From an uncultured Gammaproteobacteria bacterium (GTDB taxonomy: Bacteria; Patescibacteriota; Patescibacteriia; XYB2-FULL-38-15), in the NCBI GenBank assembly GCA_965231095.1, contig OZ246416.1, positions 249,228 to 313,227 on the forward strand: 64,000 bases of DNA, written 5' to 3'. A program made the translations under genes and the position numbers. Positions 270 through 13,177 of this stretch are shown in pieces (position 1 is the first letter of the stretch; each line of letters begins with the position of its first letter). The notes under the pieces are model-generated. The model ran no database searches. It was not told where the DNA came from and worked only from the letters and a program-made list of their open reading frames with translations.

Positions 270-1505
270 ATGAAAACCAAAAAAGCGCGGCGGCCGAAGA
301 AAAAAATCCGTAGCGCTAAAAAAATTAAAAAAGCGGGTGGAAAGAAAAAAACAACCAAGCGCGGCGGGAAAAAACTTAAAGCGAAAAAAATCGCCCGGAT
401 AGTTGCGCCAAAAATTCTTCCGCCATCCGATACGGCAATAAAAATCCTCTTGGACAAGGGTCGCATGAGAGGTTTTTTAACTGACTCGGAAATTCTTTTT
501 ACTTTTGCCGATTTGGAAAATTACATTAAAAAATACGAAGAATTTTTAGATAAGATAGATGAGGCTGGCATTTCCATGGTGGAAGTGAAAAGCGATATTT
601 TGGGACGAACCGAAGAAAGAAAAAAACTTTTGTCTGATATTGGCGTGAGTAAAGAAAAAAAACGGCTGGACTTGGGCGATATTTCCACGGATTCAATCCA
701 AATGTATCTTCGCGAAATCGGCAAGGTGCCGCTTTTGACGACTGAAGAGGAAATGGCTTTAGCCCGCCGCAAGGATCAGGGAGATCAGGAAGCGTCGCAA
801 AGATTGATGGTTGCTAATTTGCGTCTTGTTGTTTCTATTGCTAAAAAATTCGTGGGAAAAAATTTGTCTTTGGCTGACTTGATTCAGGAAGGGAATATCG
901 GTTTGATGCGCGCGGTGGAAAAATTTGACCCGAGTAAGGGATATAAATTTTCAACCTATGCTACTTGGTGGATTCGCCAAGCGGTGACACGCGCCCTTGC
1001 GGATCAATCGCGCACCATCAGAATTCCGGTGCATATGGTGGAGACAATTAATCGTTATCAGCAAGTCGCGCGGCAGTTGATTCAGGATTTGGGACGCGAA
1101 CCGTTGCCCGAGGAAATTGCTTCGGAAATGGGCGAGGACGTGGAAAAAATTAGAAATTTAATTCAGATTTCTCAAGATACGGTTTCGCTTGATACTTCTG
1201 TCGGCGACGAAGATGAGGACAGTGTGCTTGAAGATTTCATTGAAGACTTCAAAAATGTTTCTCCGGATCGCGCCGCGGCCTTGCAACTTTTGCGCGAATA
1301 TGTTAAAGAAGCAATTAAGGATCTCTTGCCCCGCGAACAGAAAATTTTGGAAATGCGCTTTGGTTTGTCTGATGGAGTTTCGCATACCTTAGAAGAGGTG
1401 GGCGAGGAATTTGGCGTGACCCGCGAACGCATTCGGCAAATTGAAGCAAAAGCCTTGGAAAAAGTGCAAGGGTTCAAAGGTATTGAAAAGCTGAGGGACT
1501 ACTAG
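270..1505 (+). CDS. rpoD: RNA polymerase sigma-70 factor RpoD/SigA with a Lys-rich N-terminal extension
   Basis: Region 2 signature [40 protein letters not shown], plus region 3/4 motifs ([33 protein letters not shown]). ATG at 270. Confidence 0.92.
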
Positions 1506-1562: not shown

Positions 1563-1637
1563 TCGGGGGTAGCTCAGCGGTAGAGCAGCGCGCTGTTAAC
1601 GCGTTGGTCGTGGGTTCGAATCCCACCTCCCGAGCCA
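1563..1637 (+). tRNA. tRNA-Asn (anticodon GTT), CCA encoded
   Basis: Hand-folded cloverleaf: acceptor TCGGGGG/CTCCCGA, D-arm GCTC-AGCGGTA-GAGC, anticodon stem GCGCG/CGCGT with loop CTGTTAA, T-arm GTGGG-TTCGAAT-CCCAC, discriminator G, then CCA. Confidence 0.85.
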
Positions 1638-3236
1638 ATGTGCACGAACAGAGGTCAAAGCCTCTGTTTTTGCTTTGTTCATCGGCCTCTTCGCCGGTTC
1701 TAACCTCAAATATTCTTTTTCCAGGGCGGGATAGCCATTTTTGATAGGCACAAACCAATCGTTCGGTTCAATAATAAGTTTTTCGCCTCTAATTATTGGA
1801 GTTTTTCCAAGTGCTGCCAAAATTTCTTTCTTCAGTTCTAACCCTGCTTTACCCATTTTGTCGGCTCTCAAGAAGGCTACACGTGCGTAGGTCGCGAAAT
1901 TGAAAGTTTTTTCAGTAAGTTCCAACCACTTGTCGGCTCGTGTTTCGGTTTGCCGTAAATTTTCTTTCATTTGGTTAATCTTTCCCTGAAGAGTATTTTT
2001 TTCTCTAACAAAAGTTTCGTCGTCAATAAGTTGGCGGTATCTCATTTTTGTTAGTTCATCCAACTCTTTTTGGGTTTCGGTCAAATTTTTATGTTGCATC
2101 TCATAAACCTTTGTCCGATCTTCAATCTCGTTGTCATTCTTCTTATTTAGCCCTTCCAGCGCCCATTGCAGGAATTCTGGTAGGATAGTATATTTTTCAA
2201 TTTCTTTTTCAATCATAAGCTCCAAGTCGGCCAATGGGATATTTTTTTTCTGGTTACATTTTACTTTTGTCGTTTTCCTTGTGCAGTGATAATAGGTGTG
2301 TTCATGTATCTCGCCAGATTTGAGCAGTTTCTTTTTAGTCTCGGCGGTATAAAGACAGCCACACACACCGCATCGAATTAAACCAGTAAAAGCGAAGTCG
2401 TGAGTCTTCGGCCTCGGTTTGCCTTTTCTCCCAAGGAGCATTTGCACCCGGTCATATTCTTCAAGTGTAATCATCCGTTCGTGTTTGCCTTCGTATTGCG
2501 CGCCGTTGTAGTCTATTACGCCCGTATAGAAGAGATTTGTGAAAATCCGATAAATACCACTTCTCGATAATTCATCGCCGCCCTTCCGCTTAAATTTTCT
2601 TGTCCGAAAGCCCCATTCCTTATTTGCAATATCTAAAATTTTCGGGGGAGTATAATTGCCGGTGAGCATTAAATCCCACATTTTACGAATAATGCTAAAA
2701 CGTTCTGGATCCGTGATTATTATTTTATTTTCTTTGTCGTTAAGATAGCCGAGCGGGGCCACTCCCGTTTGCCAGCCTTTCTCTAATTTGGAAAGCATGC
2801 CGCGTTTCGTATTCTTGCTCAAATCTATGATGTATTGGTTGGCAACGCCGCTTTCAACGCTAAAAAGTAAGACGTTGTCCTCTGGGAGATATTGGCGATC
2901 CATTGTTTGAATTGATTTTAAAACGCCTCTTTGCAAGAGCCAACTTATTTTTCCGCTATCAATCGGATTACGGGAGAGGCGGTTTATTTGCCAGCATAAA
3001 ATTCCGCCTGCTTCGCCATTTTCAATTCGTTGCAGCATTTCGGAGAATAGGGGACGGTTGTCTGGTTTTTTGGCTGATTTAGCCTCGGTATAAACTTTTT
3101 TGATATTTAAATTAAGATCGGTAGCAAGTTTTTTAAGCCGATTGACCTGGTCATCAATAGACTGCACTTGCCGGTCTTCACTTTCCGACGATTTTCTGGC
3201 GTAGATAAAGTATTTAATTAGTTGGTTTGCGGCCAT
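1596..3236 (-). CDS. Large serine recombinase (integrase). The ORF track start at 3329 is TTG; ATG at 3236 (MAANQLIKYFIYARKSS…) is the more plausible start.
   Basis: N-terminal resolvase catalytic domain (YARKSSESEDRQVQSIDDQ; PLFSEMLQRIENGEAGGILCWQINRLSRN), a recombinase domain (GVAPLGYLND), a zinc ribbon (CGVCGCLY…YYHC) and a C-terminal coiled-coil. The 3' end overlaps the tRNA-Asn 3' end, as expected for an element-encoded integrase running through attL. Confidence 0.85.
   Translation of the reverse strand: MAANQLIKYFIYARKSSESEDRQVQSIDDQVNRLKKLATDLNLNIKKVYTEAKSAKKPDNRPLFSEMLQRIENGEAGGILCWQINRLSRNPIDSGKISWLLQRGVLKSIQTMDRQYLPEDNVLLFSVESGVANQYIIDLSKNTKRGMLSKLEKGWQTGVAPLGYLNDKENKIIITDPERFSIIRKMWDLMLTGNYTPPKILDIANKEWGFRTRKFKRKGGDELSRSGIYRIFTNLFYTGVIDYNGAQYEGKHERMITLEEYDRVQMLLGRKGKPRPKTHDFAFTGLIRCGVCGCLYTAETKKKLLKSGEIHEHTYYHCTRKTTKVKCNQKKNIPLADLELMIEKEIEKYTILPEFLQWALEGLNKKNDNEIEDRTKVYEMQHKNLTETQKELDELTKMRYRQLIDDETFVREKNTLQGKINQMKENLRQTETRADKWLELTEKTFNFATYARVAFLRADKMGKAGLELKKEILAALGKTPIIRGEKLIIEPNDWFVPIKNGYPALEKEYLRLEPAKRPMNKAKTEALTSVRAHWLGRWDSNPRPTR
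1615..1637 (+). repeat. attL core: 23-bp direct repeat equal to the tRNA-Asn 3' end (ttcgaatcccacctcccgagcca)
   Basis: Exact 23/23 match to 9908-9930. Confidence 0.65.
1649..1672 (+). terminator. Rho-independent terminator after tRNA-Asn (embedded in the recombinase 3' coding region on the opposite strand)
   Basis: cagagg-tcaaag-cctctg hairpin followed by tttttg. Confidence 0.5.
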
Positions 3237-3455
3237 ATTTTTGTTACAATTTAGCTGGGAGAAAGGAAAGGCAGAAGTTTCCCCCTCCGAAACTTTTGAC
3301 CTCAACCCTTTTCTCTTCTTTAAACTCAAAGGGACGGTCTGGTTGACCCAGTCGCTTCTCCGTGAGGATAGGCTTCTGGCAGACCGCCCCTTAAAGGGCA
3401 GAAACCTATAAAAAATCTCACGGATTTGTCTTATGCTGGGTCAACGTTTTTATTA

Positions 3456-3706
3456 TATCACGATTTTCCACCATTTTCCACCATTTTGATCATAACTGAC
3501 AACGATTTCCCACGATTTCCATACTTTTCCAATATTTTAATCGTAATTTTCCCTGATTTTCCACGATTTTTATTCTTCGACCACCAATCATTTTCAATCA
3601 TTTTCAATCATTTTTATTCTCCTCTTTCCCGGCATTTCCGCCATTTTCCGCCATTTTTCCAATATTTTACATTATTTTTCCGCAATTTTCCGCAATTTTT
3701 ATTCAT
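3456..3706 (+). repeat. Iteron-like array of tandem 10-11 bp direct repeats (ATTTTCCAC/ATTTTCCGC family) between the recombinase start and the SpoVG-like gene
   Basis: ttttccacca x2, cgatttcc x2, caatcatttt x3, ccattttccg x2-3, ccgcaatttt x2. There are about 14 TTTCC cores, all on one strand at helical-turn spacing. Confidence 0.55.
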
Positions 3707-3832
3707 TCATTTTGTAAATAGTTACTTCTACCTTATAGGAAATCTATTAAATAACTTTATAGAGTTAAATATAGAAAGTTATTATATATTGTTAACTATA
3801 TAGATACTTAAATAATTAACTATGAGAGATAG

Positions 3833-4174
3833 CTATTTAGAAAATATTTTTTCAATTTCTTCATCCTGGACTCCCATTCTTTTTTGATAATGGCTGTTAG
3901 TCTGCTTATAGTATTCATTCCAAATCTTTGCTTGCAGGGCTTCCCAGAGGCCTTTTTCGGGCATAAAGAATATCGGACGGTATTTTCCACCCGCCGAGGG
4001 ATAAGAAGGGGGAGTGAGCCATAATTTATCACCTTTTAAGTTTGGATATTGCGACTCCATCACTCTGAAACCCTTGACTATAAGATCTCCAAAATCTACG
4101 GAAATTATGGCTTTTAGTTTTTGCCCTTCAAGCACTTTTACTTTAATAGAGATTACGTCTAAATCTACGTTCAT
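3833..4174 (-). CDS. SpoVG family protein (113 aa)
   Basis: Collinear with SpoVG: LKAIISVDFGDLIVKGFRVMES resembles [24 protein letters not shown], and the C-terminal …IWNEYYK resembles …VLNEYHR. ATG at 4174. Confidence 0.55.
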   Translation of the reverse strand: MNVDLDVISIKVKVLEGQKLKAIISVDFGDLIVKGFRVMESQYPNLKGDKLWLTPPSYPSAGGKYRPIFFMPEKGLWEALQAKIWNEYYKQTNSHYQKRMGVQDEEIEKIFSK

Positions 4175-4198
4175 AAATTTGTTTAGTTAATTGTAATA

Positions 4199-4396
4199 TT
4201 ATGTTTTTAAGTCGCCGGTCTCTTTCCGGCGTTCTTGTAGTTTTTTGTATTCCGTCTCGGTCACTGGTTTATAAATCAACTCAACTAATCGGATGAGTTT
4301 TGCACCCTGCTCATACGCTTCCTCTCGGCTGATTTCTTTGCCGAAGTAGTTTTTATAAAGCGTTTGATAAGTTTTAATTTGCTCATCCGATAGCAT
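4199..4396 (-). CDS. Hypothetical small protein (65 aa)
   Basis: ATG ORF inside the island with coding-like composition; no motif recognised. Confidence 0.4.
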   Translation of the reverse strand: MLSDEQIKTYQTLYKNYFGKEISREEAYEQGAKLIRLVELIYKPVTETEYKKLQERRKETGDLKT

Positions 4397-4399
4397 AGT

Positions 4400-4696
4400 T
4401 TACTCCGAGTAAATTCGGTTTTTTAACATTTTGATATTATCAAAGAACGTCCTCGCCTTAACTTCTAGGCGGTCTGCCCAGTAATTATCAACGACCTTTT
4501 CAATGCCGATTTCTCGGCGAAAGATAAACTGGACTTTTTTGGGATTGGATTTGTCTAATGAGACAAGCTCAAAACCCGCCGTTGTCAATGAGGCGGCGGC
4601 TCCCAAATCAAAGGTATATAGGTGTTGTGAGTAGTCATCCGCGGGAGCGAATTTATTATCACTCCCCGGTTGACCACCTCTGAGTTTTTTGGTCAT
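4400..4696 (-). CDS. DUF5659-like protein (98 aa)
   Basis: TFDLGAAASLTTAGFELVSL…KKVQFIFRRE…VDNYW…KARTFFDNIKMLKNRIY resembles the DUF5659 pattern seen in CPR mobile elements. This is from memory and was not searched. Confidence 0.4.
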   Translation of the reverse strand: MTKKLRGGQPGSDNKFAPADDYSQHLYTFDLGAAASLTTAGFELVSLDKSNPKKVQFIFRREIGIEKVVDNYWADRLEVKARTFFDNIKMLKNRIYSE

Positions 4697-4801
4697 ATAA
4701 TTTTAGTTAGGGTTTTGGCAAATTAAAAAAGCCAAAGTTTTTTATGCTTTGACTTTACCAAAGTGTCAGGTGAGTCAATTACGGCTCAATTGCCTCAAAT
4801 A

Positions 4802-5482
4802 TCAATAATTCCGTTTTATGGTTTTTTCTTGCCAAGTAAATAAATCGTCATTGGTATTTGCTATTTCTTTTATTCGTTTATTAAGGGCGTCCACAGCGTC
4901 ATAAACTATTCGCCAATTCTCTCGGCTGTTTTGAGGTTTGCCATAGTATGCTTCATAATATCCAGTCATTTTTTGATAAATAGATGACCAATCGATTGGT
5001 TCACTTACTCCGTGCTCATACATAGCGCGGCAGAGGTAATGTTCGTTTTTGTATGGTGGGATTTGGCATTTTTGACTGCCAATTTCCAAAATTGCTTTTT
5101 CGTCGTTATATTTTACTCCCAAAGTTTTTAATTCAACCGGTTCGGGGGCTTGTTTGGTAATTTTATTTCTTCTTTCTTGAACGGTGTCTGTAAAAATATA
5201 ATGAAACTCATAAAGTTGATCAAACGCCGGCTGAATTATATCTATGTAAACGTCAGCTCTTAATAGGTCAATGCTATTGGGATCTGTTAGTTTGATAACC
5301 CCGTCTTTGGCTAATTTCCTCAATATACCAATTTCGTCATCGGAAGAGAGCGAATTGTCCCAAATATTGGAAGCGACAAAATAAGGGATATGATTTTCTA
5401 TATCAGCGTATAGTGATCTTTCTTTAATCTTTTTTAAGACGTGCCAAATACTCTCATTGAATTTTTCCTCCGGAAGTGTCAT
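4802..5482 (-). CDS. Hypothetical protein (226 aa), divergent from the RT gene
   Basis: ATG ORF with protein-like composition (W/Y-rich) and no recognisable motif. Confidence 0.5.
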   Translation of the reverse strand: MTLPEEKFNESIWHVLKKIKERSLYADIENHIPYFVASNIWDNSLSSDDEIGILRKLAKDGVIKLTDPNSIDLLRADVYIDIIQPAFDQLYEFHYIFTDTVQERRNKITKQAPEPVELKTLGVKYNDEKAILEIGSQKCQIPPYKNEHYLCRAMYEHGVSEPIDWSSIYQKMTGYYEAYYGKPQNSRENWRIVYDAVDALNKRIKEIANTNDDLFTWQEKTIKRNY

Positions 5483-5595
5483 AGTAATTTATATTATAAT
5501 ATTGCGAAATAACGCATTTCCGATGTAAGATAATATTATCAAACGTTAGGTGTTAAATCAATAACTAGGGGGTCCCTGGTTTGGAGAAAACATTT

Positions 5596-6921
5596 ATGGC
5601 ATTTTATGGAAAAATTATAAAACAAGTCGGGGGAAAATTCTGGCGGCATATTCATAAGGAGACACTTATTCCATATAAGGGCAATATGCCTAGCCGGGAG
5701 AAATTTTTGAAAGATCTTTCAGAGAAGATAGAAAAAATGCAGTATATCCCATCGCCACCTCGTGCTTATATCGTTTCGCATAAACAGAATCTGGTTGTTA
5801 GGTTTATACCTACAATGCAGAGGAGCGATTACTGCATTTATTTTTTTTGTGTTAAATCTCTTGAAAAAGAGATTGCAAAAAATCGTGTGCGGGGCACATA
5901 TGGCGGTTGGAAATTGGGAGGGAAAATTCGAAGAGCAGAGAATGGCGACGATGCACCGTCTACACCAGACGCCAGCTATAACAGATTCGAATGGATGCGC
6001 GCCTGGACAGATTATCAAAAGAGAGCATATGGATTTTATCTAAATGATAAGTTTAAGTATTTTATCGTCTTTGATATTGCAAATTTTTATGACTCGGTAA
6101 GACTTGGAAGGCTTGAAATATTGTTGCGCGAAGCAGCGCAAAAAAATAAAACTTCAGTCGTTAATCTTTTAATATATTTTTTATCGAATTGGGGTAAAAG
6201 GGATTTAAATTACGAAAGGCAAAGCACCGGGTTACCGCAAGACGAGGTCGGAGACTGTTCGAGGATCTTGGCGAATTTTTATTTGCAAGATTATGATAAA
6301 AAAATCTATAAGATTGTTTCGAGAAAAAAGGGTGGTTATCTGAGATATGCGGATGACCAAATTATAGCCGCGCCCAACGAAAAGACGGCAAAAAAAATTA
6401 TGTTTCTCGCTTCGCAAGAACTCGCCAAAATCGGTCTAAATCTAAACGCAAGTAAAGCTAAATTTTTTGAGAATCGAGATGAATTTAGTTATTTTTGGTC
6501 ATTCGATATTTTCAAATTACTCGGAAATAAAAATAACAAAAAAACGATTGAAAGCGCGTATAGTCTTTTTAAAGCAAGGAAGGCTAAGGATATACAATTT
6601 AAATCCGATGCAGTTCTCAAGAGACTTCTAAGTTGCAATCTTCGTTGCATCTCCCGAAATGTTCGCGAAGAGATCCTCGAGATGGTAAATAGAAAAGAAT
6701 TTTTGATTAATGTTAAAGACTATTATCTCAAAAGAATATACGAATTTATGCCCAGAAATAAAAAAAGTATTTTTTTGAAGTATCTAAATAATTTATCAGA
6801 CGAAATCCTTTTTAATGAGTTTCATCTAAGAGTAATGAAATTTTTCCGTGAAAAAAGAATCGACGGGATTTATTCGGATAAGCTACACTCAAATCTATTG
6901 AAACTGAATGATCTCGTGTAA
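5596..6921 (+). CDS. Reverse transcriptase of the retron/Abi/UG (defence-associated) type with an alpha-helical C-terminal extension. The ORF track start at 5581 is TTG; ATG at 5596 is preferred.
   Basis: RT motifs: motif 1/2 (IPSPPRAYIVSHKQNLVVRFIPTMQRSDYCIYF), motif A (FKYFIVFDIANFYDSV), motif B (GLPQDEVGDCSRILANFYL) and motif C (LRYADDQIIAAP), followed by about 200 aa of helical C-terminus. There is no maturase X or endonuclease domain. Confidence 0.85.
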   Translation: MAFYGKIIKQVGGKFWRHIHKETLIPYKGNMPSREKFLKDLSEKIEKMQYIPSPPRAYIVSHKQNLVVRFIPTMQRSDYCIYFFCVKSLEKEIAKNRVRGTYGGWKLGGKIRRAENGDDAPSTPDASYNRFEWMRAWTDYQKRAYGFYLNDKFKYFIVFDIANFYDSVRLGRLEILLREAAQKNKTSVVNLLIYFLSNWGKRDLNYERQSTGLPQDEVGDCSRILANFYLQDYDKKIYKIVSRKKGGYLRYADDQIIAAPNEKTAKKIMFLASQELAKIGLNLNASKAKFFENRDEFSYFWSFDIFKLLGNKNNKKTIESAYSLFKARKAKDIQFKSDAVLKRLLSCNLRCISRNVREEILEMVNRKEFLINVKDYYLKRIYEFMPRNKKSIFLKYLNNLSDEILFNEFHLRVMKFFREKRIDGIYSDKLHSNLLKLNDLV

Positions 6922-6981
6922 ACGTATCTCGCTGATTAAATAACTTTCCAAAATTAATTAAAAACGCTATTATATAAATAC

Positions 6982-7153
6982 ATCTGCCTAAACCTCGCTC
7001 CCTCCGCGAGGCATGGCAACTAAATCCTACGCGAATAAAGATGGTCTCCTGACCAGCACTTATTCGCGTAGGTCCACGTCCGAAAGGGCGTGGGGCGATT
7101 CCGAAAGGGGTCGTCGCTGTGTTGGGAGACCTTTTTTGTTTCCCTAGGCAGAT
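6982..7153 (+). ncRNA. Structured non-coding RNA immediately 3' of the RT (retron msr/msd-like or DRT-like ncRNA candidate)
   Basis: A 9-bp terminal inverted repeat (atctgccta at 6982-6990 and taggcagat at 7145-7153) closes the element. Inside are hairpin cctcgc/gcgagg, a perfect 13-bp stem cctacgcgaataa/ttattcgcgtagg (7026-7038/7060-7072) with a 21-nt loop, and two GAAA-tetraloop hairpins (7074-7093, 7095-7117). It ends with gggagacc + TTTTTT. The GNRA loops read GAAA only on the + strand. Confidence 0.5.
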
Positions 7154-7174
7154 AACAATTAAAACACACAAAAT

Positions 7175-7867
7175 ATGAAAAAAAATCTTCCAAATTGGCT
7201 TCTTTGGATCGCTGTATTCCCGGGAGCATTAATTTTTGGCTTGCTTATATTGTTTCCCCTGCATTGGATACTTTATATGGCTTTTTCTTACGACGGGACT
7301 TTTTTATTTTTTGAGTTACCCCCAGAAACAAATTTAATTGTCGAGAACGCAATTTATCCTGCTGTTTTTGCTATTGCCTTCATCTTTGCCGGTTATAAAA
7401 TTGCGCCAAAATATAAATTTAAAACAGCGATTGTCCTTTTTGGAATTTACTCTATCGCTTGGCTGACCATGATCGCTATAGTATTTTTTCAACCCGACAT
7501 TTACGGCGAGAATTTGTCTTTTCCATGGAGAGCGGCGCTGTCGTTGGTAGGCGCAATTATAGGCTTATATGTAACAAAACGTTACGGAATAAAGAAAATA
7601 GAAGAGAACCCAGCAGAGGACAAAGAATTGGACGAGATGGTGGAGGACTTCAACAGAGAAGCCGAAGCAGAGGGAAAATTAGCCCCACCGCAGGACGAGG
7701 AAACCACCCAAGTAATATTTCAACCAGGAAAATCGAAAGACCGTGGATTGGACGAAGTGATCGCGGACTTCAACAAGGATATGAAAAAATTGGGCGTAAA
7801 GGTAGTGCCGCCGAAAGACGACGGGGAGATACAAGTAGTATTTCGACAAAATTTCAAAAACAAATAA
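7175..7867 (+). CDS. Multi-pass membrane protein (about 4 TM) with an acidic C-terminal tandem repeat; candidate effector of the RT module
   Basis: Hydrophobic N-terminal half. The C-terminus contains two approximately 35-aa repeats (LDEMVEDFNREAEAEGKLAPPQDEETTQVIFQ / LDEVIADFNKDMKKLGVKVVPPKDDGEIQVVFRQ). It starts 22 nt after the ncRNA. Confidence 0.6.
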   Translation: MKKNLPNWLLWIAVFPGALIFGLLILFPLHWILYMAFSYDGTFLFFELPPETNLIVENAIYPAVFAIAFIFAGYKIAPKYKFKTAIVLFGIYSIAWLTMIAIVFFQPDIYGENLSFPWRAALSLVGAIIGLYVTKRYGIKKIEENPAEDKELDEMVEDFNREAEAEGKLAPPQDEETTQVIFQPGKSKDRGLDEVIADFNKDMKKLGVKVVPPKDDGEIQVVFRQNFKNK

Positions 7868-7923
7868 GCCAACCTCAAAATAATAAGTTAATAATATTTA
7901 TAATTTTAACTATAACCTAAACT

Positions 7924-8262
7924 ATGCCTAAAATCATCATCACGTTACTCCTCCCAATGTTACTTTTGGGTGCGGGTTGCGGAGCTGCGACATCTGGAGG
8001 CGGGGAAATTAAAATCACAAATACCGCCGAGAAGCCCGCTCCCGCGCAAAATCTTTATAACCTCGACACCGCCGATTCCGAGAATGTAGATGACTGCGTA
8101 ATCAAGGGTAACATCTCGTCGTCTGGAGAAAAAATATATCACTTGCCAGGATGCGGATCATATAGCCGAACCGTGATTGACGAAAGTGCCGGCGAGGAAT
8201 GGTTTTGTTCAGAAGATGATGCTGAGGCGGCAGGTTGGAGAAAGGCAAAAAATTGTCCTTAA
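7924..8262 (+). CDS. Lipoprotein with a C-terminal 4-Cys domain (112 aa)
   Basis: Lipobox LLLGAGC; C-terminus [43 protein letters not shown]. Confidence 0.5.
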
Positions 8263-8305
8263 TCTGGCGATCTAAGAAAATTTATTTTTAAAAACTAATT
8301 AATTT

Positions 8306-8599
8306 ATGAGTGAAATTACACAACAAAATCAAGGTCATCCAAACGCGAGTGGCTCTATATTTTTGTCAGTTGTAGCGGTAGTATTAATGTTTTTTGGTAT
8401 ACCAGCCATACTTTCGTTGATACTGGTAGCAATATCATCTCGACAAATTTTCAATGCGAAAAAAGCGGGGGAGAGTAAGAAATTTATTATCATCAGTTAT
8501 ATATTTTTGGCAGTCTCCTTGATTCTAGTTTTGATTTTGTCTTTTATAGAAGTTGTTCCTTTTGTAATCCACAGCCTGAAAGAAGCAGAAGCAATATAG
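8306..8599 (+). CDS. Small membrane protein (97 aa, 2-3 TM)
   Basis: Hydrophobic segments flanking a K-rich loop. Confidence 0.45.
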   Translation: MSEITQQNQGHPNASGSIFLSVVAVVLMFFGIPAILSLILVAISSRQIFNAKKAGESKKFIIISYIFLAVSLILVLILSFIEVVPFVIHSLKEAEAI

Positions 8600-8706
8600 G
8601 GGTAAATTTTATCCTCATTGACTATGAGCCCGGCGATAATACCGGGAAGTGTTTTGTTTTGGGAAATAGAGTATAATTAAAATGTTTTTAACTAACCCCA
8701 TAAAAT

Positions 8707-9687
8707 ATGCCTTCTGCGAAACTAGCTAAAGTAAATATAAAAATACCTGCATCATACGAACCATCTTTTGGCATAAGTAGGTGGAGTAAAAATGATTACG
8801 CGAAACCATTAATATTTAAAATCGATAATGCTGAAGCACGGATATTTTTAGAATATCCACCGACGGGGTTCTCGGTATTTCCTAAATTAAAAATATTCCC
8901 ATTTCCGAATCCATTTATAGTTTTACTGATTCGTAATCCAAGTGCTGAATTTATACAAGGATTGAAGGCGAAAAGTGGAGAAAATACTGTTAAAACGGCA
9001 GAACATATCTACAAAATATACGTAGAAGTAGTAAGTAAATTAGAAATTTTGCTTCGAACTGTAGGGGGAGTTAAAAATTTATATGAACTCAGAACTCCGC
9101 CAATAGAAGCGTTATTCAAAAAAAATATTTTAGATTATCCAGTTACCTTTCAAATAGATTCAGAAGATAAAAAACCCTTTAGTCCGAAATTTTCGACAAG
9201 GTCAAGGAGAAGGAACCCTCTTTTTAAAGCCGATCAGCTTGTAACGCCAGATAAGTGGGGGAAGATGCAAAGAGCCATTGATAATCGATATTACGCAAGC
9301 CAAGAAATTATTGAAATATTAAGAATACGAGCGAAGCTATTAGGAGAAAATAAAAAATTAGCAACTCTCGAATCTGCAATTCTTTTCGAAAGTCTGCTGA
9401 GAGACTATTCGCGTAAGACTCTTGAAGAGAGGGGAGTCAGCAATACAAAGGTGAAGGAAGTTAGTGATGAATTAAATTTCAATAATATCCTCAATCTGCT
9501 ACTTCCCCTCAGTTTAAAAAAGGCAGAGGTCCTTAAACTTCGCGAAAGTATAAATACGATTGATGCATTGAGAAAAATTAGAAACAAAGTCATTCATGGA
9601 GAATTGACAGAAGATAAGATTGATAAAAAAATAATTGAAAAGGGGATTGAGGGGGGACTGAAATTGATTAGATTTTTATTTAAATGA
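8707..9687 (+). CDS. Hypothetical protein with a C-terminal HEPN-like Rx4H motif (326 aa); possible Abi-type RNase
   Basis: The C-terminal helical region reads …IDALRKIRNKVIHGELTED… (R-N-x3-H-G, as in HEPN/Abi_2-type domains). The rest is unrecognised. Confidence 0.4.
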   Translation: MPSAKLAKVNIKIPASYEPSFGISRWSKNDYAKPLIFKIDNAEARIFLEYPPTGFSVFPKLKIFPFPNPFIVLLIRNPSAEFIQGLKAKSGENTVKTAEHIYKIYVEVVSKLEILLRTVGGVKNLYELRTPPIEALFKKNILDYPVTFQIDSEDKKPFSPKFSTRSRRRNPLFKADQLVTPDKWGKMQRAIDNRYYASQEIIEILRIRAKLLGENKKLATLESAILFESLLRDYSRKTLEERGVSNTKVKEVSDELNFNNILNLLLPLSLKKAEVLKLRESINTIDALRKIRNKVIHGELTEDKIDKKIIEKGIEGGLKLIRFLFK

Positions 9688-9907
9688 TAAGACTAGCCCC
9701 AGAATATAGGGGAACTTAAAATTAGTTAATACAAATGTTTAGATAGTTCCGGTATATAAACATACTCATTTTGTCGCTGAATTATAGTTCTAACGCTGTC
9801 CACAATTCGGAGCCAAAATAAAAATTCCGACTTTTTGTCGGGGTTTTTATTTTGTGTTTTGTGGTGACAGATTTGAACCCACCCACCGTTAAGCCATCGG
9901 GCGTAGC

Positions 9908-9930
9908 TTCGAATCCCACCTCCCGAGCCA
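9908..9930 (+). repeat. attR core: second copy of the 23-bp tRNA-Asn 3'-end repeat
   Basis: Exact copy of 1615-1637; followed by an AT-rich hairpin that is probably the original tRNA terminator. Confidence 0.65.
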
Positions 9931-9967
9931 AAATAAAATATCCAACGAAAGTTGGGTATTTTATTTT
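9931..9967 (+). terminator. AT-rich 17-bp hairpin with a GAAA loop right after attR (probably the ancestral tRNA-Asn terminator)
   Basis: aaaataaaatatccaac-gaaa-gttgggtattttatttt. Confidence 0.45.
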
Positions 9968-9998: not shown

Positions 9999-10589
9999 AT
10001 GGATCTAAAAATATTTTTTACAATAATTGCCGCGGTAATTGGTGTCCTAGCTTTCATCCCATATTTAAGGGATATTTTTCTATTGAAAACAAAACCCCAC
10101 GCTTACACCTGGCTCATTTGGGTTATTACCCAAGGAACCGCGGTTTTGGGGATTTGGTATGGCGGTGGGAGATGGGGCGCGCTTAATTTAACGGTCGGAA
10201 TTGTCCTTGCTTTCGTTGTCTTTTTATTTTCTCTAAAATACGGAACAAAAAATATTACAAAGAGTGACACAGCTATTTTAATCGCCGCCCTTTTGGCGAT
10301 TTTAGTTTGGTGGCAATTGGATCAGCCGCTTATTTCCGTGATTATGGTTTCGGCGATTGACGTTATTGGATATTTCCCGAGTTTTAGAAAATCATATCAA
10401 GAACCGTGGAGCGAGACCCTTACTTCTTGGATTTTATTTTCCGTCTCAAATGTTTTTGCGATGCTGGCGTTATCCCAATATAATTTATTAACTTTAACTT
10501 ATTTAGTTTCAATTTCCTTCGCCAATCTTATGCTTTTCACGATTTGTTTAGCGCGAAGACCTCATGTTCCAAAACCAAAATTATTATAA
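9999..10589 (+). CDS. Integral membrane protein (about 6 TM), hypothetical
   Basis: Hydrophobic helices throughout; ATG at 9999. Confidence 0.55.
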   Translation: MDLKIFFTIIAAVIGVLAFIPYLRDIFLLKTKPHAYTWLIWVITQGTAVLGIWYGGGRWGALNLTVGIVLAFVVFLFSLKYGTKNITKSDTAILIAALLAILVWWQLDQPLISVIMVSAIDVIGYFPSFRKSYQEPWSETLTSWILFSVSNVFAMLALSQYNLLTLTYLVSISFANLMLFTICLARRPHVPKPKLL

Positions 10590-10599
10590 TTTCTAAAAT

Positions 10600-11079
10600 A
10601 TGACCTCAAAAAATTTCTTAAAACTAATTATCGCAATTCTGGTTTCCGAAGCCGCGGGGATTATTGGTTCGATTTTCACAACCCCATCAATCTCCGGCTG
10701 GTACGCGAATTTGGTTAAACCGGAATTTGCTCCACCAAATTGGATTTTCGCCCCGGTCTGGACAACACTTTTTGCCCTGATGGGTATTGCGGCATTTCTT
10801 GTGTGGAAGAGGGGATTGGACGACAAAAAAGTAAAAATCGCTCTCGGTATATTTATCGGTCAGTTGGCGCTGAACACTCTTTGGTCAATTATCTTTTTCG
10901 GTCTGCATTCTCCGGCCGGCGCGTTTTTAGAAATTATTTTTTTGTGGCTCGCCATCCTTGCCACAATCATTGCTTTCGCAAAAATTTCTCGCGCCGCAGC
11001 CTGGATTTTGGCGCCCTATATTCTTTGGGTGAGTTTCGCCGCTTATTTAAATTACGCAATTTGGACTCTTAATAAATAA
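10600..11079 (+). CDS. tspO: TspO/MBR family tryptophan-rich sensory protein
   Basis: SGWYANLVKPEFAPPNWIFAPVWTTLFALMGIAAFLVW and a W-rich 5-TM pattern typical of TspO. Confidence 0.8.
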   Translation: MTSKNFLKLIIAILVSEAAGIIGSIFTTPSISGWYANLVKPEFAPPNWIFAPVWTTLFALMGIAAFLVWKRGLDDKKVKIALGIFIGQLALNTLWSIIFFGLHSPAGAFLEIIFLWLAILATIIAFAKISRAAAWILAPYILWVSFAAYLNYAIWTLNK

Positions 11080-11114
11080 AGGTCGAATCTTAAATAAAAG
11101 AAGGAGAAAATTTT

Positions 11115-11324
11115 ATGAAAGTATTAAATTGGGTAGCCATAGTTTTGATCGTTGTTGGCGGTCTAAACTGGGGCCTGGTTGGATTTTTTAACTTTGACCT
11201 GGTCGCGACTATTTTCGGCGCAATGTCTCTTGTTTCAAGAGTGGTTTACGCCCTCGTCGGTTTGAGCGCGCTTTGGGTGCTTCTCTTTATGTTGCCGCAG
11301 ATGAACAAGAAGCCACAGATGTAA
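11115..11324 (+). CDS. DUF378 family small membrane protein
   Basis: VGGLNWGLVGFFNFDLV signature; SD aaggag upstream. Confidence 0.6.
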   Translation: MKVLNWVAIVLIVVGGLNWGLVGFFNFDLVATIFGAMSLVSRVVYALVGLSALWVLLFMLPQMNKKPQM

Positions 11325-11400
11325 TTTTGAAATTTCTCGGGCAGCCTGTCTGGAATGGGCTGCCTATAGAGATTTTCAATTTTATGCCCAAAAGAAAAAT

Positions 11401-11919
11401 ATGATAAATCTCCCAAACATTCTAAGTTTGACGCGGATTGTTTTGGCTTTTATTTTTGCTGCCCTCCTTTTTAATTATTATAAAATTCCCGCTGCGGGAG
11501 TTTTTTTGTTGGCGATTGTGACAGATGTTTTGGATGGGTATTTAGCCCGAAAATATAATCAAATTACTTTACTCGGTAAAATTTTAGATCCGGCGGCGGA
11601 CCGGCTTTTGGCGCTTCTGGCTTTTTTGATTTTATATTTAAACCACGGCCTGCCCGCCGGCCTCGCGATTTTTGCTATTTTTTATCATCTCTATATTATT
11701 TTGGGCTGGGTCCTGATTTTTCAAACAAAAAATATTACCCTTGAACATACCTTCTGGGGAAAGTTAAATTCTTTTATTCAAACAATAATGTTTTTCGCGG
11801 TGATTTTTGATTTTTATCCAAATATATTTTTTGCGGCAGTGACGATTTCGCTTACTGTGGCTTTCCTAAATTATACTTTTCGGGGACTGATTGCCCTAAA
11901 TATTTTTAAGACAAAATGA
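11401..11919 (+). CDS. CDP-alcohol phosphatidyltransferase family protein (PgsA-like)
   Basis: DVLDGYLARKYNQITLLGKILDPAADRLL, i.e. the D-G-x2-AR…G…D-x3-D motif. Confidence 0.7.
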   Translation: MINLPNILSLTRIVLAFIFAALLFNYYKIPAAGVFLLAIVTDVLDGYLARKYNQITLLGKILDPAADRLLALLAFLILYLNHGLPAGLAIFAIFYHLYIILGWVLIFQTKNITLEHTFWGKLNSFIQTIMFFAVIFDFYPNIFFAAVTISLTVAFLNYTFRGLIALNIFKTK

Positions 11920-12461
11920 TTATTCTTCAAAGTTTATATTTTATGTTGCCGGCCTACATCGCAAATATGGCGCCGGTTTTTGCACGAAAATTTGGCGTGT
12001 TTAAATTTTTAGCGCGGCCGGTTGACGGCGGACGGCAGTTTCGCGGCAAGAGAATTTTTGGCGATCATAAAACTTGGCGGGGATTTTTGGTTGGCATTGT
12101 GGCGGCAATCGCGATAGTGTGGCTTCAGTATTTTTTATATTCAATTCCGGTCTTTAAAAATTTAAGTTTATTAAATTATTCTGAAAAAAAATTGTGGATT
12201 TTAGGTTTTCTTTTCGGATTTGGCGCGCTCTTTGGCGATCTGGTAAAAAGTTTTTTCAAGCGGAGAAAAAATATTTTGCCCGGAGCGTCGTGGATTCCTT
12301 TTGATCAAATTGATTTTGTGATTGGAGCTTTGATTTTTATTATGCCGGTTTATTTTCCTTCGTGGCCAGCCGTGATTATAATTTTATTCTTTAGTCCAAT
12401 CCTCCATATTTTAACAAATCAAATTGGTTATCTTTTGAAAATAAAAAATACGCGTTGGTAG
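11916..12461 (+). CDS. CarS-like (DUF46, CDP-archaeol synthase family) membrane protein
   Basis: RGKRIFGDHKTWRGF signature and membrane topology; translationally coupled to the preceding phosphatidyltransferase (ATGA overlap). Confidence 0.45.
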   Translation: MIILQSLYFMLPAYIANMAPVFARKFGVFKFLARPVDGGRQFRGKRIFGDHKTWRGFLVGIVAAIAIVWLQYFLYSIPVFKNLSLLNYSEKKLWILGFLFGFGALFGDLVKSFFKRRKNILPGASWIPFDQIDFVIGALIFIMPVYFPSWPAVIIILFFSPILHILTNQIGYLLKIKNTRW

Positions 12462-12502
12462 AACCTCTTGAAATTTAAAGAAAAAATTGATAGACTGACC
12501 TC

Positions 12503-13177
12503 ATGGGAAAACTATATATTATTGCCACGCCAATCGGAAATTTGGAGGATATAACCTTGCGCGCTCTTAGAATTTTAAAAGAGGTTGATTTGGTTTTGTG
12601 CGAGGACACAAGGCAAACTAGAAAATTACTTGATAAATACGAAATAAAAACGCGAACCTTGAGTTATCACCAGCACAGTAAGTTGGCGCGGGTGGAAGAA
12701 ATTATTAATTTACTTCGCGAAGGAAAAAATCTGGCGTTGGTTTCCGACGCCGGCACGCCGGCCATTTCCGACCCGGGCGGAAAATTAGTTGAAGAAGTTT
12801 TGCGGGCGTTTGGTGATGAGACACAAATTATTCCTGTTCCGGGAGCATCGGCCGTTGCCGCCGCGGCGAGCATTTCCGGTTTTCCCACCGATAAATTTTT
12901 ATTTTTAGGTTTTCCGCCGCATAAACACGGCCGTGCCGCTTTTTTTAAAAAAATTTCCGACATGGAAGAAACCGTTATTTTTTACGAATCAACTCACAGA
13001 ATTTTAAAATCCTTGGAAGAACTGCGGGGAGTGGCGGGGGCGAGACAGATTGCCGTTTGCCGCGAATTAACAAAAATGTTTGAAACAATTTATCGGGGAA
13101 AAACATCCGAAGTTTTAGAAAAATTAAAAGCCGACACAACAAAAGGAGAATTTGTTGTTGTGGTAGAAAAAAAATAA
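12503..13177 (+). CDS. rsmI: 16S rRNA (cytidine1402-2'-O)-methyltransferase RsmI
   Basis: LYIIATPIGNLEDITLRALRILKEVDLVLCEDTR… tetrapyrrole-methylase fold. Confidence 0.85.
   Translation: MGKLYIIATPIGNLEDITLRALRILKEVDLVLCEDTRQTRKLLDKYEIKTRTLSYHQHSKLARVEEIINLLREGKNLALVSDAGTPAISDPGGKLVEEVLRAFGDETQIIPVPGASAVAAAASISGFPTDKFLFLGFPPHKHGRAAFFKKISDMEETVIFYESTHRILKSLEELRGVAGARQIAVCRELTKMFETIYRGKTSEVLEKLKADTTKGEFVVVVEKK

Follow-up and report, generated by a model that had tools for sequence, protein, structure and literature searches.

Two questions are raised by the locus described here: where does an integrative element inserted at a tRNA gene begin and end, and how does the gene for its recombinase come to stop inside that tRNA? 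The locus lies in a stretch of 64,000 nucleotides from contig OZ246416.1 of a Patescibacteria genome (positions 249,228 to 313,227, [GenBank:GCA_965231095.1]), the whole of which was analysed and is called the 64-kb window below; L numbers denote related loci and contigs. The only tRNA gene called by ARAGORN in the window is tRNA-Asn(GTT) (1563-1637, plus strand; Rfam tRNA 71 bits), in which the CCA end is encoded. A preliminary description, made from the sequence letters, had proposed an element bounded by two 23-bp copies of the 3′ end of this tRNA. Our analysis indicates that the element is very probably an 8,178-bp insertion (core to core, 1632-9816) at the CCA end of tRNA-Asn, and that its attP site lies inside the gene for its large serine recombinase (LSR), which was split on integration.

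Attachment sites and the divided recombinase gene

The LSR gene in its integrated, hybrid form occupies 1596..3236 on the minus strand and encodes 546 aa from its ATG. As first described, its open reading frame (ORF) passes through attL, with the stop codon (1596-1598) falling inside the tRNA. From Trp534, whose TGG codon is the antisense of CCA at 1635-1637, to this stop the codons are antisense tRNA, and the protein ends in 13 residues (WLGRWDSNPRPTR) read in antisense from the tRNA 3′ end. In the integrated state, LSR residues 1-535 therefore stand beside the tRNA and are followed by 11 more codons of antisense tRNA. The 27 codons that natively follow Trp-Leu, together with the stop codon, have been moved to the far end of the element, where translation of 9726..9815 on the minus strand gives the native last 29 residues, WLRIVDSVRTIIQRQNEYVYIPELSKHLY*. 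This displaced 3′ exon constitutes the P arm of attP, which integration has placed in attR, and contains a zinc-ribbon-type motif, GTTCTAAC, at 9787-9794. The tRNA sequence itself is unaltered by the integration.

Three comparisons identify the displaced exon. First, when the 30-residue native tails of five uninterrupted homologues were used as queries, their only significant match in the window was the 9726-9815 exon (E from 6e-12 to 9e-6; next best above 0.05). Second, queries consisting of the last 60 residues of uninterrupted homologues split cleanly between 1724-1632 and 9815-9744. Third, the uninterrupted attP of L083 and L085 reads ...GTTCTAAC-N13-TTCGGAGCCA|NNGTGCACGAAC... and is collinear with 9787-9815 followed by 1638-1650. 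The exon, the attP collinearity and the empty-site comparison given below all place the true right end of the element at the attR core GAGCCAA (9810-9816). By direct reading, this 7-bp block is the only one that attR has in common with attL, where it lies at 1632-1638, so the crossover must lie within GAGCCAA; and because this core belongs to an attP inside the LSR coding sequence, integration splits the gene. In nine other delimited elements the core shared by attP and attB is 5-7 nt long. We infer that throughout the family the crossover takes place within the last 5 nt of the tRNA, the block that is always shared. Excision at the 7-bp core would yield the attB junction CCCGAGCCAAAATAAAAATTCCGAC and the attP junction CACAATTCGGAGCCAATGTGCACGAAC.

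The same displaced exon was found in eight other loci, on the LSR strand and 8.2-11.1 kb off, at tRNA-Asn, Gln, His, Lys and Trp genes; their cores of 5-7 nt start at TGG. In L052, two displaced LSR 3′ exons (at 511 and 3103) lie upstream of a single LSR gene, which suggests that a second element once stood there in tandem and left a relic.

Six metagenome contigs were found to match a degenerate attP pattern. Among these, L098 (10,471 bp) has ends that overlap exactly over 88 nt, and it measures 10,383 bp when circularised. Its LSR ORF closes across the junction to give 563 aa with the native tail, and there is no tRNA on the contig. The cargo of L098 is type III restriction-modification-like, and of the family backbone genes it carries that for DUF5659 and one for a 376-aa protein, which the window copy lacks. 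The evidence for circularity comes from L098 only: L083 was also considered as a circle and was rejected, since its two ends do not overlap and the DUF5659/small-gene copies found there differ, one being 75% and the other 29% identical to the window protein.

Empty sites and the tRNA fragment beyond the element

The repeat on which the preliminary description was built does exist. It is 24 bp long, one more than had been reported: exact copies of TTCGAATCCCACCTCCCGAGCCAA stand at 1615-1638 and 9908-9931, two matches to it occurred in 0 shuffles of the window, and ungapped similarity around it extends over 44 nt (84%; 1595-1638 vs 9888-9931). Together with an integrase adjoining the tRNA, these facts are what speaks for an element spanning 1615-9931, with the crossover in the 24-bp identity and the 3′ half of the tRNA brought in by the element. 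However, the second copy starts 92 bp beyond attR, and the displaced LSR exon and its P-arm motif (9726-9815) lie upstream of it. The stretch common to attP and attB in the family is 5-7 nt at the CCA end, not a tRNA half, and serine integrases need no, and typically lack, long identity (PMC5704250).

Relatives that lack the element were also compared. These were located through homologues of the host RpoD (270-1505, plus strand), a protein with a lysine-rich N-terminal extension and 8,000 matches at E<=1e-60; metagenomes had given no match when scanned for the empty-site or repeat string in its exact form. In the closest relatives by RpoD (96% identity: L087-L089; also L092-L094), rpoD is followed by tRNA-Asn, a hairpin, and then a second tRNA-end copy, with no LSR element between these parts. 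This second, exact 23-nt tRNA end lies 116-126 nt downstream of the tRNA and is itself followed by a hairpin homologous to window 9932-9967. Since repeat and hairpin are present without the element, the repeat is part of the host flank and older than the element. Removal of 1639-9816 in silico makes the window collinear with these relatives. In L092, CCA is directly followed by AAATAAAAATT, as at window 9816-9826, and its spacer plus fragment differ from window 9862-9931 at about 2 positions. The empty site had been predicted to read tRNA and then 9931 onwards; the relatives show tRNA and then the homologue of 9816 onwards. The older delimitation, which would predict reads joining ...GGGTTCGAATCCCACCTCCCGAGCCAAAATAAAATATCC, is thus highly improbable.

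Both hairpins named in the preliminary description are present, one at 1646-1669 followed by a T-run on the plus strand, the other with 17-bp AT-rich arms at 9930-9946/9951-9967. The latter had been taken for the original terminator of the tRNA. A terminator scan and the empty-site relatives point instead to a similar hairpin with T-run at 9814..9854 (plus strand), which had been overlooked: GAGCCAAAATAAAA just before it marks the real junction. This host hairpin represents the B′ side of attB, and 8.2 kb now separate it from the tRNA. The host flank outside the element then continues (9862..9967, plus strand) with an inverted T-arm-like stretch (9862-9887), the tRNA fragment (9888-9931) and the hairpin (9930-9967).

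The 44-nt fragment is directly preceded by the inverted T-arm/variable-arm-like stretch GGTGACAGATTTGAACCCACCCACC (9862-9931; L092 ~11400-11470). The two together form a palindrome centred on the anticodon-loop GTTAA, and this arrangement is kept in a relative. Exact 23-nt tRNA fragments also occur in tandem, each with a hairpin after it, at 11328, 11444, 11570 and 21047 in L092 and at 11328 and 11454 in L087. At the same rpoD-tRNA-Asn locus, L092 carries a type I restriction-modification/Bro-N/SocA island and L087 an EcoRI-methylase/GmrSD island, with no integrase called. One of the four fragments of L092 lies past a 9.5-kb restriction/toxin-antitoxin island. Another relative, L090, has a divergent LSR at this site (11321-12898, minus strand), and these multiple fragments and the divergent LSR together mark the locus as an integration hot spot.

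The fragments may be scars of islands whose tyrosine integrases cross over in the T-loop, or they may be spare half-sites of LSR elements. If they were spare attB half-sites used or made by the present LSR family, it would be understandable that perfect identity covers offsets 0-22, exactly the extent of the inferred B half-site, while the 20 nt upstream are 35% diverged, and that four copies occur in L092, of which one follows a 9.5-kb island without an integrase. Yet no LSR P or P′ arm adjoins any of the fragments, identity from the T-loop to the 3′ end is the classical signature of tyrosine-integrase islands (PMC4383910), and LSRs are not known to have any means of duplicating a B arm. An origin as LSR half-sites is accordingly improbable.

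The recombinase and its family

The hybrid protein contains the Pfam domains Resolvase, Recombinase and Zn_ribbon_recom, which upholds the initial recognition of an integrative element with an LSR at tRNA-Asn. It matches a PHROG integrase family (2.8e-71), and its residues 11-450 are homologous to the SPbeta and A118 integrases. The resolvase domain (PF00239, 4.2e-18) covers residues 10-154, and the serine nucleophile motif YARKSSESEDRQ is invariant in 25 homologues. PF07508 (recombinase) and PF13408 (zinc ribbon) are both present, and residues 211-450 align to the C-terminal domain of A118 integrase. A low-confidence structure model of a homologue shows long helices at 353-462, consistent with a coiled coil. 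Because the canonical domains (residues 11-450) align to SPbeta and A118, the exchange of the C-terminus touches only a family-specific extension.

More than 4,700 proteins match the LSR at E<=1e-20. The closest are 86% identical and the best 120 are 78-86% identical; the homologues come from metagenome-assembled genomes of Patescibacteria/Candidate Phyla Radiation (CPR). Their C-termini are conserved to ...SVRAHW and diverge beyond it. Many go on with tails of the x4-DSN type, DSN being the antisense reading of the tRNA T-loop, and others bear a different, conserved tail such as WLRIVDNVRTIIERQNEYIYIPDLRGFANL. In 60 of the 75 related genome loci with a mappable LSR end, the Trp codon TGG is the exact antisense of a tRNA CCA end. 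The targets are tRNA-His (19), Gln (12), Asn (10), Trp (10) and Ser (4), with one each of Lys, Met, Asp, Glu and Ile, or ten specificities overall. Two further targets of the family are tRNA genes split by a group I intron (L003 11630-11931; L010 11633-11874); here the LSR ORF runs via the tRNA 3′ half into the intron, and this read-through gives a recurrent LSR tail, ...DSNRRPIGYTYPLIS. The LSR of L090 is 40% identical to that of the window and also ends in the same tRNA-Asn, the host RpoD being 92% identical, so the architecture reaches distant members of the clade.

Some short homologues (ending WLRG*) on 13-14 kb contigs were considered as free forms and rejected: they are integrated copies in which the antisense tRNA gives an early stop. 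Viral contigs gave no match when scanned with the single LSR protein, one 40%-identical match when scanned with an alignment, and no match to the attP pattern. These near-empty scans indicate that such elements are not catalogued as viruses. An identity as inovirus or prophage (PMC6813254) was likewise rejected, as no morphogenesis or structural gene was found.

Grammar of the attachment sites

Comparison of the two types of attachment site reveals a regular arrangement, with offsets counted from the T of TGG. In P arms (attP left arms or displaced exons), TTAGAA occupies offsets 22-27 in 21/21 sequences. In B arms, all 61 tRNA targets have TCGAAC, the antisense of the T-loop, at 18-23; the full TTCRAAY at 17-23 is present in 21 of the 61, offset 17 being variable. 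In the window the tRNA serves as B arm of attB and attL, and its T-loop motif GTTCGAAT lies at 1614-1621 on the plus strand, as located with the profile of the 61 targets. Neither type of arm has the motif at the position of the other. The TTAGAAC of the attP arm lies exactly 5 bp further out than the T-loop TTCGAAC, in agreement with the 5-bp offset rule for zinc-ribbon motifs in attP vs attB published for the LI/A118 integrase (PMC3783163).

These sequence patterns point to a zinc-ribbon domain that reads the tRNA T-loop (as antisense TTCGAAC) in attB. In attP the same domain would read TTAGAAC, 5 bp further out, and the offset would provide the asymmetry between attB and attP that serine integrases need. 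Reading of the T-loop would also explain the spread of the family across at least 10 tRNA specificities. As a candidate for a mirror-image motif in the P′ arm we considered GTTCGTGC at offsets -12 to -5, which was rejected because it implies a centre outside the shared core.

A probable terminator within the recombinase gene

Integration parts the tRNA from its own hairpin at 9814-9854, and a hairpin of the element would replace this terminator. The element hairpin (1646-1669) and its T-run (1646..1680, plus strand) form the putative terminator of tRNA-Asn and lie antisense within the LSR codons for NKAKTEALTSV. That a terminator for the tRNA is carried within the recombinase coding region had been proposed before, and covariation now backs the proposal. 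Among 69 distinct sequences of the family, the proportion of paired cells is 82.3%, and it drops to 38-55% in controls with the partner slid by 1-3 columns. Double-change cells number 94, vs 35.8±5.0 in shuffles, none of which reaches 94 (0/500), and the covariation score is 0.370, vs at most 0.156 in the slid controls. The compensatory changes alter amino acids (TEA...SV, NRA...AV, NEQ...SL), so the structure of the nucleic acid seems to be the stronger constraint there.

Alternatively, the hairpin after CCA might be no terminator but a recognition element of the P′ arm, or a structure of the LSR mRNA. Its 5′ arm falls where the P′ half-site is expected, at most ~25 bp from the crossover, and the hairpin is found in un-integrated forms too. 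Compensatory changes, however, are evidence of base pairing rather than of read-out by a protein, and the strand is also telling: there are 140 G-U pairs in the tRNA sense vs 29 in the recombinase sense, and a T-run (at least 5 T in 8 nt across the 3′ arm and after) occurs in 77% of the sequences, on the tRNA strand only. Moreover, integration takes away the native terminator of the tRNA. A role other than termination has therefore only a small probability, and the hairpin is best regarded as a probable tRNA terminator. If so, a stretch of ~60 bp holds three overlapping codes, namely protein, recombination half-site and antisense terminator, and offers a clear example of dual coding, since its covariation can be measured.

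State of the integrated copy and possible role of the tail

The split gene may have consequences for the enzyme. A conserved native tail (...VRTIIQQQNEYIYIPDL...) is swapped for arbitrary tRNA-antisense residues, and this may make the free and the integrated enzyme differ; one may speculate that the swap acts as a switch of directionality or stability. Candidates for a recombination directionality factor (RDF), equally speculative, are the 65-aa backbone protein described below, the DUF5659 protein and the HTH_17 genes of relatives. The mode of cell-to-cell transfer is likewise a matter of speculation.

Another possibility is that the element is a dead end: the split would inactivate the LSR, as in the "suicidal" integrases of SSV type, which provide a precedent (PMC7253208), and the copy would now be fixed and decaying. 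The removal of the conserved 27-residue native tail and the lack of a recognised RDF fit such a fate, and relics do exist, such as the second orphan exon of L052 and the divergent LSR at the same site in L090. On the other hand, the hybrid ORF is full length, 86% identical to homologues and intact in its catalytic and DNA-binding domains. Both att junctions and the displaced exon are uninterrupted, the integrated copies at 60 loci retain intact ORFs, and a relative is present in circular form (L098). A dead end is thus rather unlikely.

There are several observations that do not favour our interpretation of a split-gene element. For this copy no recombination, excision or circular form was seen, and the strain has been assembled only once more (Logan SRR8863431; L001, L086), again with the element in place. 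The sequence places the crossover within the shared core of 7 nt here, and not at one dinucleotide. No convincing copy of a mirror-image TTAGAAC was detected when it was sought in the P′ arm, and no RDF was recognised by homology in the element. The AlphaFold2 model of a full-length LSR homologue has a mean pLDDT of 50.8, with the tail below 50, and is uninformative on the tail. The terminator is a putative one, deduced from structure and covariation. Finally, in three homologues, L037, L054 and L066 (LSR ~10001-11680), the native tail and an intact attP occur on long chromosomal contigs of 64-636 kb, with no tRNA at the gene end; these may be mis-binned or chimeric contigs, tandem copies or something else.

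Relation to known systems

Phage-type LSRs (A118/LI, SPbeta SprA, phiC31, Bxb1) resemble the window family in the order of resolvase, recombinase and zinc-ribbon/coiled-coil domains, in the very short identity between attP and attB, and in a motif whose distance from the centre is 5 bp greater in attP than in attB. The window LSR differs from them in its target, the tRNA CCA end, in having attP inside the integrase ORF, and in a C-terminal extension of ~110 aa past the region homologous to solved structures. Furthermore, the hosts are Patescibacteria/CPR, and there are no phage structural genes.

The reach of an integrase gene across attP is known from two groups of tyrosine recombinases, IntP of the Myxococcus phage Mx8 and the archaeal integrases of SSV type (PMC4383910). 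Integration into a tRNA gene is reported to alter the Mx8 integrase and to partition the SSV integrase (PMC4383910; PMC7253208). These systems share with the window an attP within the integrase ORF and a gene product changed by integration. In contrast to their long blocks of tRNA identity, the serine recombinase of the window uses a core of 5-7 nt; the exchange is limited to its last 27 residues and leaves the canonical domains whole.

Classical tRNA islands (Islander) have in common with the element a site in a tRNA gene, a tRNA that remains functional, accessory or defence cargo, and a hot spot with accreted fragments. Here, however, there is no tyrosine integrase, the only recombinase being of the serine family; no tRNA fragment of tens of nt is supplied, and the fragment nearby is not the island end. 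Tycheposons and PICI-like elements are also small (8-11 kb) islands at tRNA sites with modular, variable cargo. Some relatives of the window element hold primase/AAA_25 and small terminase genes as PICI-like elements do, whereas the window copy is without a replication or packaging gene. A minority of tycheposons use a large serine recombinase, according to passages of the preprint that describes them (10.1101/2020.12.28.424599). The host phylum and the backbone (DUF5659, the 65-aa protein and the LOOT RNA) differ, and neither a split integrase nor targeting of the CCA end was met in those passages (10.1101/2020.12.28.424599). A review of integrative mobilizable elements reports that serine-recombinase elements insert within genes and have very short repeats (PMC5704250). 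A full-text literature search of incomplete coverage turned up no account of serine integrases that target tRNA genes in Patescibacteria, nor of a recombinase gene split in this manner. The family is apparently a widespread, undescribed variant of serine-integrase elements.

Taken at its broadest, the family could be a large Patescibacteria clade of serine integrases that use the tRNA 3′ end as landing site, read the T-loop, cross over in the CCA region and carry attP in the ORF, with the swap of the tail sensing the integrated vs the free state. This proposal as a whole is tentative, possible but on balance doubtful. If it is true, each integration would replace a conserved C-terminal peptide by junk and so set directionality or stability. 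Retargeting to any tRNA would then require changes only in the contacts near the acceptor stem, a natural template for retargetable serine integrases. The related serine integrases (60-86% identical) on at least 10 tRNAs form a natural series with a readable site grammar, consisting of a fixed CCA, a variable acceptor-stem segment, a fixed T-loop motif and the 5-bp attP/attB offset; this series is material for learning how serine-integrase specificity may be reprogrammed. The working rule of island-finding software, that only tyrosine integrases target tRNA genes, is contradicted. Under that rule such elements would be mis-delimited or missed, as the present one was at first mis-delimited.

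Backbone genes, cargo and the LOOT RNA

Between the LSR start and the next gene lies a 600-bp non-coding gap upstream of LSR with clusters of direct repeats of 10-bp periodicity (3459..3700; repeat search and TRF): CACCATTTTC three times, CAATCATTTT three times and TTTCCGCAAT six times. There is no credible ORF in this region, and the repeats could be iterons, a regulator array or bent DNA. Four genes on the minus strand follow. The first, at 3833..4174, encodes a SpoVG-like small protein (Pfam SpoVG 1.4e-7) in a variable slot of the backbone, with homologues in L028, L017 and L095. The second, at 4199..4396, encodes the conserved 65-aa backbone protein, found by tblastn in 65 related loci at 70-89% identity; a function as RDF or as regulator is speculation. 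The DUF5659 backbone protein (4400..4696; Pfam 7.8e-11) is present in 50 related loci and in un-integrated forms. A 226-aa protein (4802..5482) has no family match and has homologues in 5 loci.

The remaining genes are on the plus strand. The first encodes a reverse transcriptase (RT) of type UG13b (5581..6921; PADLOC RT_UG13b 5.1e-143 over residues 12-431 of 446 aa; Pfam RVT_1), by sequence a candidate defence-associated RT. Three membrane or lipoprotein genes (7175-7867, 7924-8262, 8306-8599) have weak family matches only. The last gene (8707..9687) encodes a 326-aa protein with an RNKVIH (Rx4H) motif and a weak C-terminal HEPN-like match (HEPN_RiboL-PSP, 1.1e-4), whose 22.5 bits are below the cut-off of 28.4. 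The cargo had been called largely defence-like; this holds in part, with one strong match, RT UG13b (5e-143), and one weak, sub-threshold HEPN match, the other cargo genes encoding membrane proteins or lipoproteins. No replication or packaging gene and no phage structural gene was found in the window copy with Pfam and PHROG.

The description as defence-like fits the family better than this copy. The cargo slot of ten delimited relatives is occupied by type III restriction-modification, SocA/Panacea, Cap15/CD-NTase (CBASS), Schlafen-AlbA, Mrr and nuclease genes. Toxin-antitoxin genes also occur among relatives, and some have primase/AAA_25 or small terminase (Terminase_2) genes. The elements are a common carrier of defence genes, and of the orphan LOOT RNA, among the little-understood Patescibacteria. 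The flanks of the element in the window resemble ordinary Patescibacteria core genes, including TspO, CDP-alcohol phosphatidyltransferase and an aminoacyl-tRNA synthetase.

The LOOT RNA itself (Rfam RF03000) lies at 6985..7115 on the plus strand, between the RT gene and the membrane-protein genes, and matches the full-length model in cmscan with 77 bits vs a gathering threshold of 46.4. It is also found in L004 (4232-4353), L013 (2550-2664), L025 (5035-5162) and L027 (4548-4668). With a five-sequence profile in nhmmer, it recurs in at least 21 related loci, each time on the strand opposite to the recombinase.

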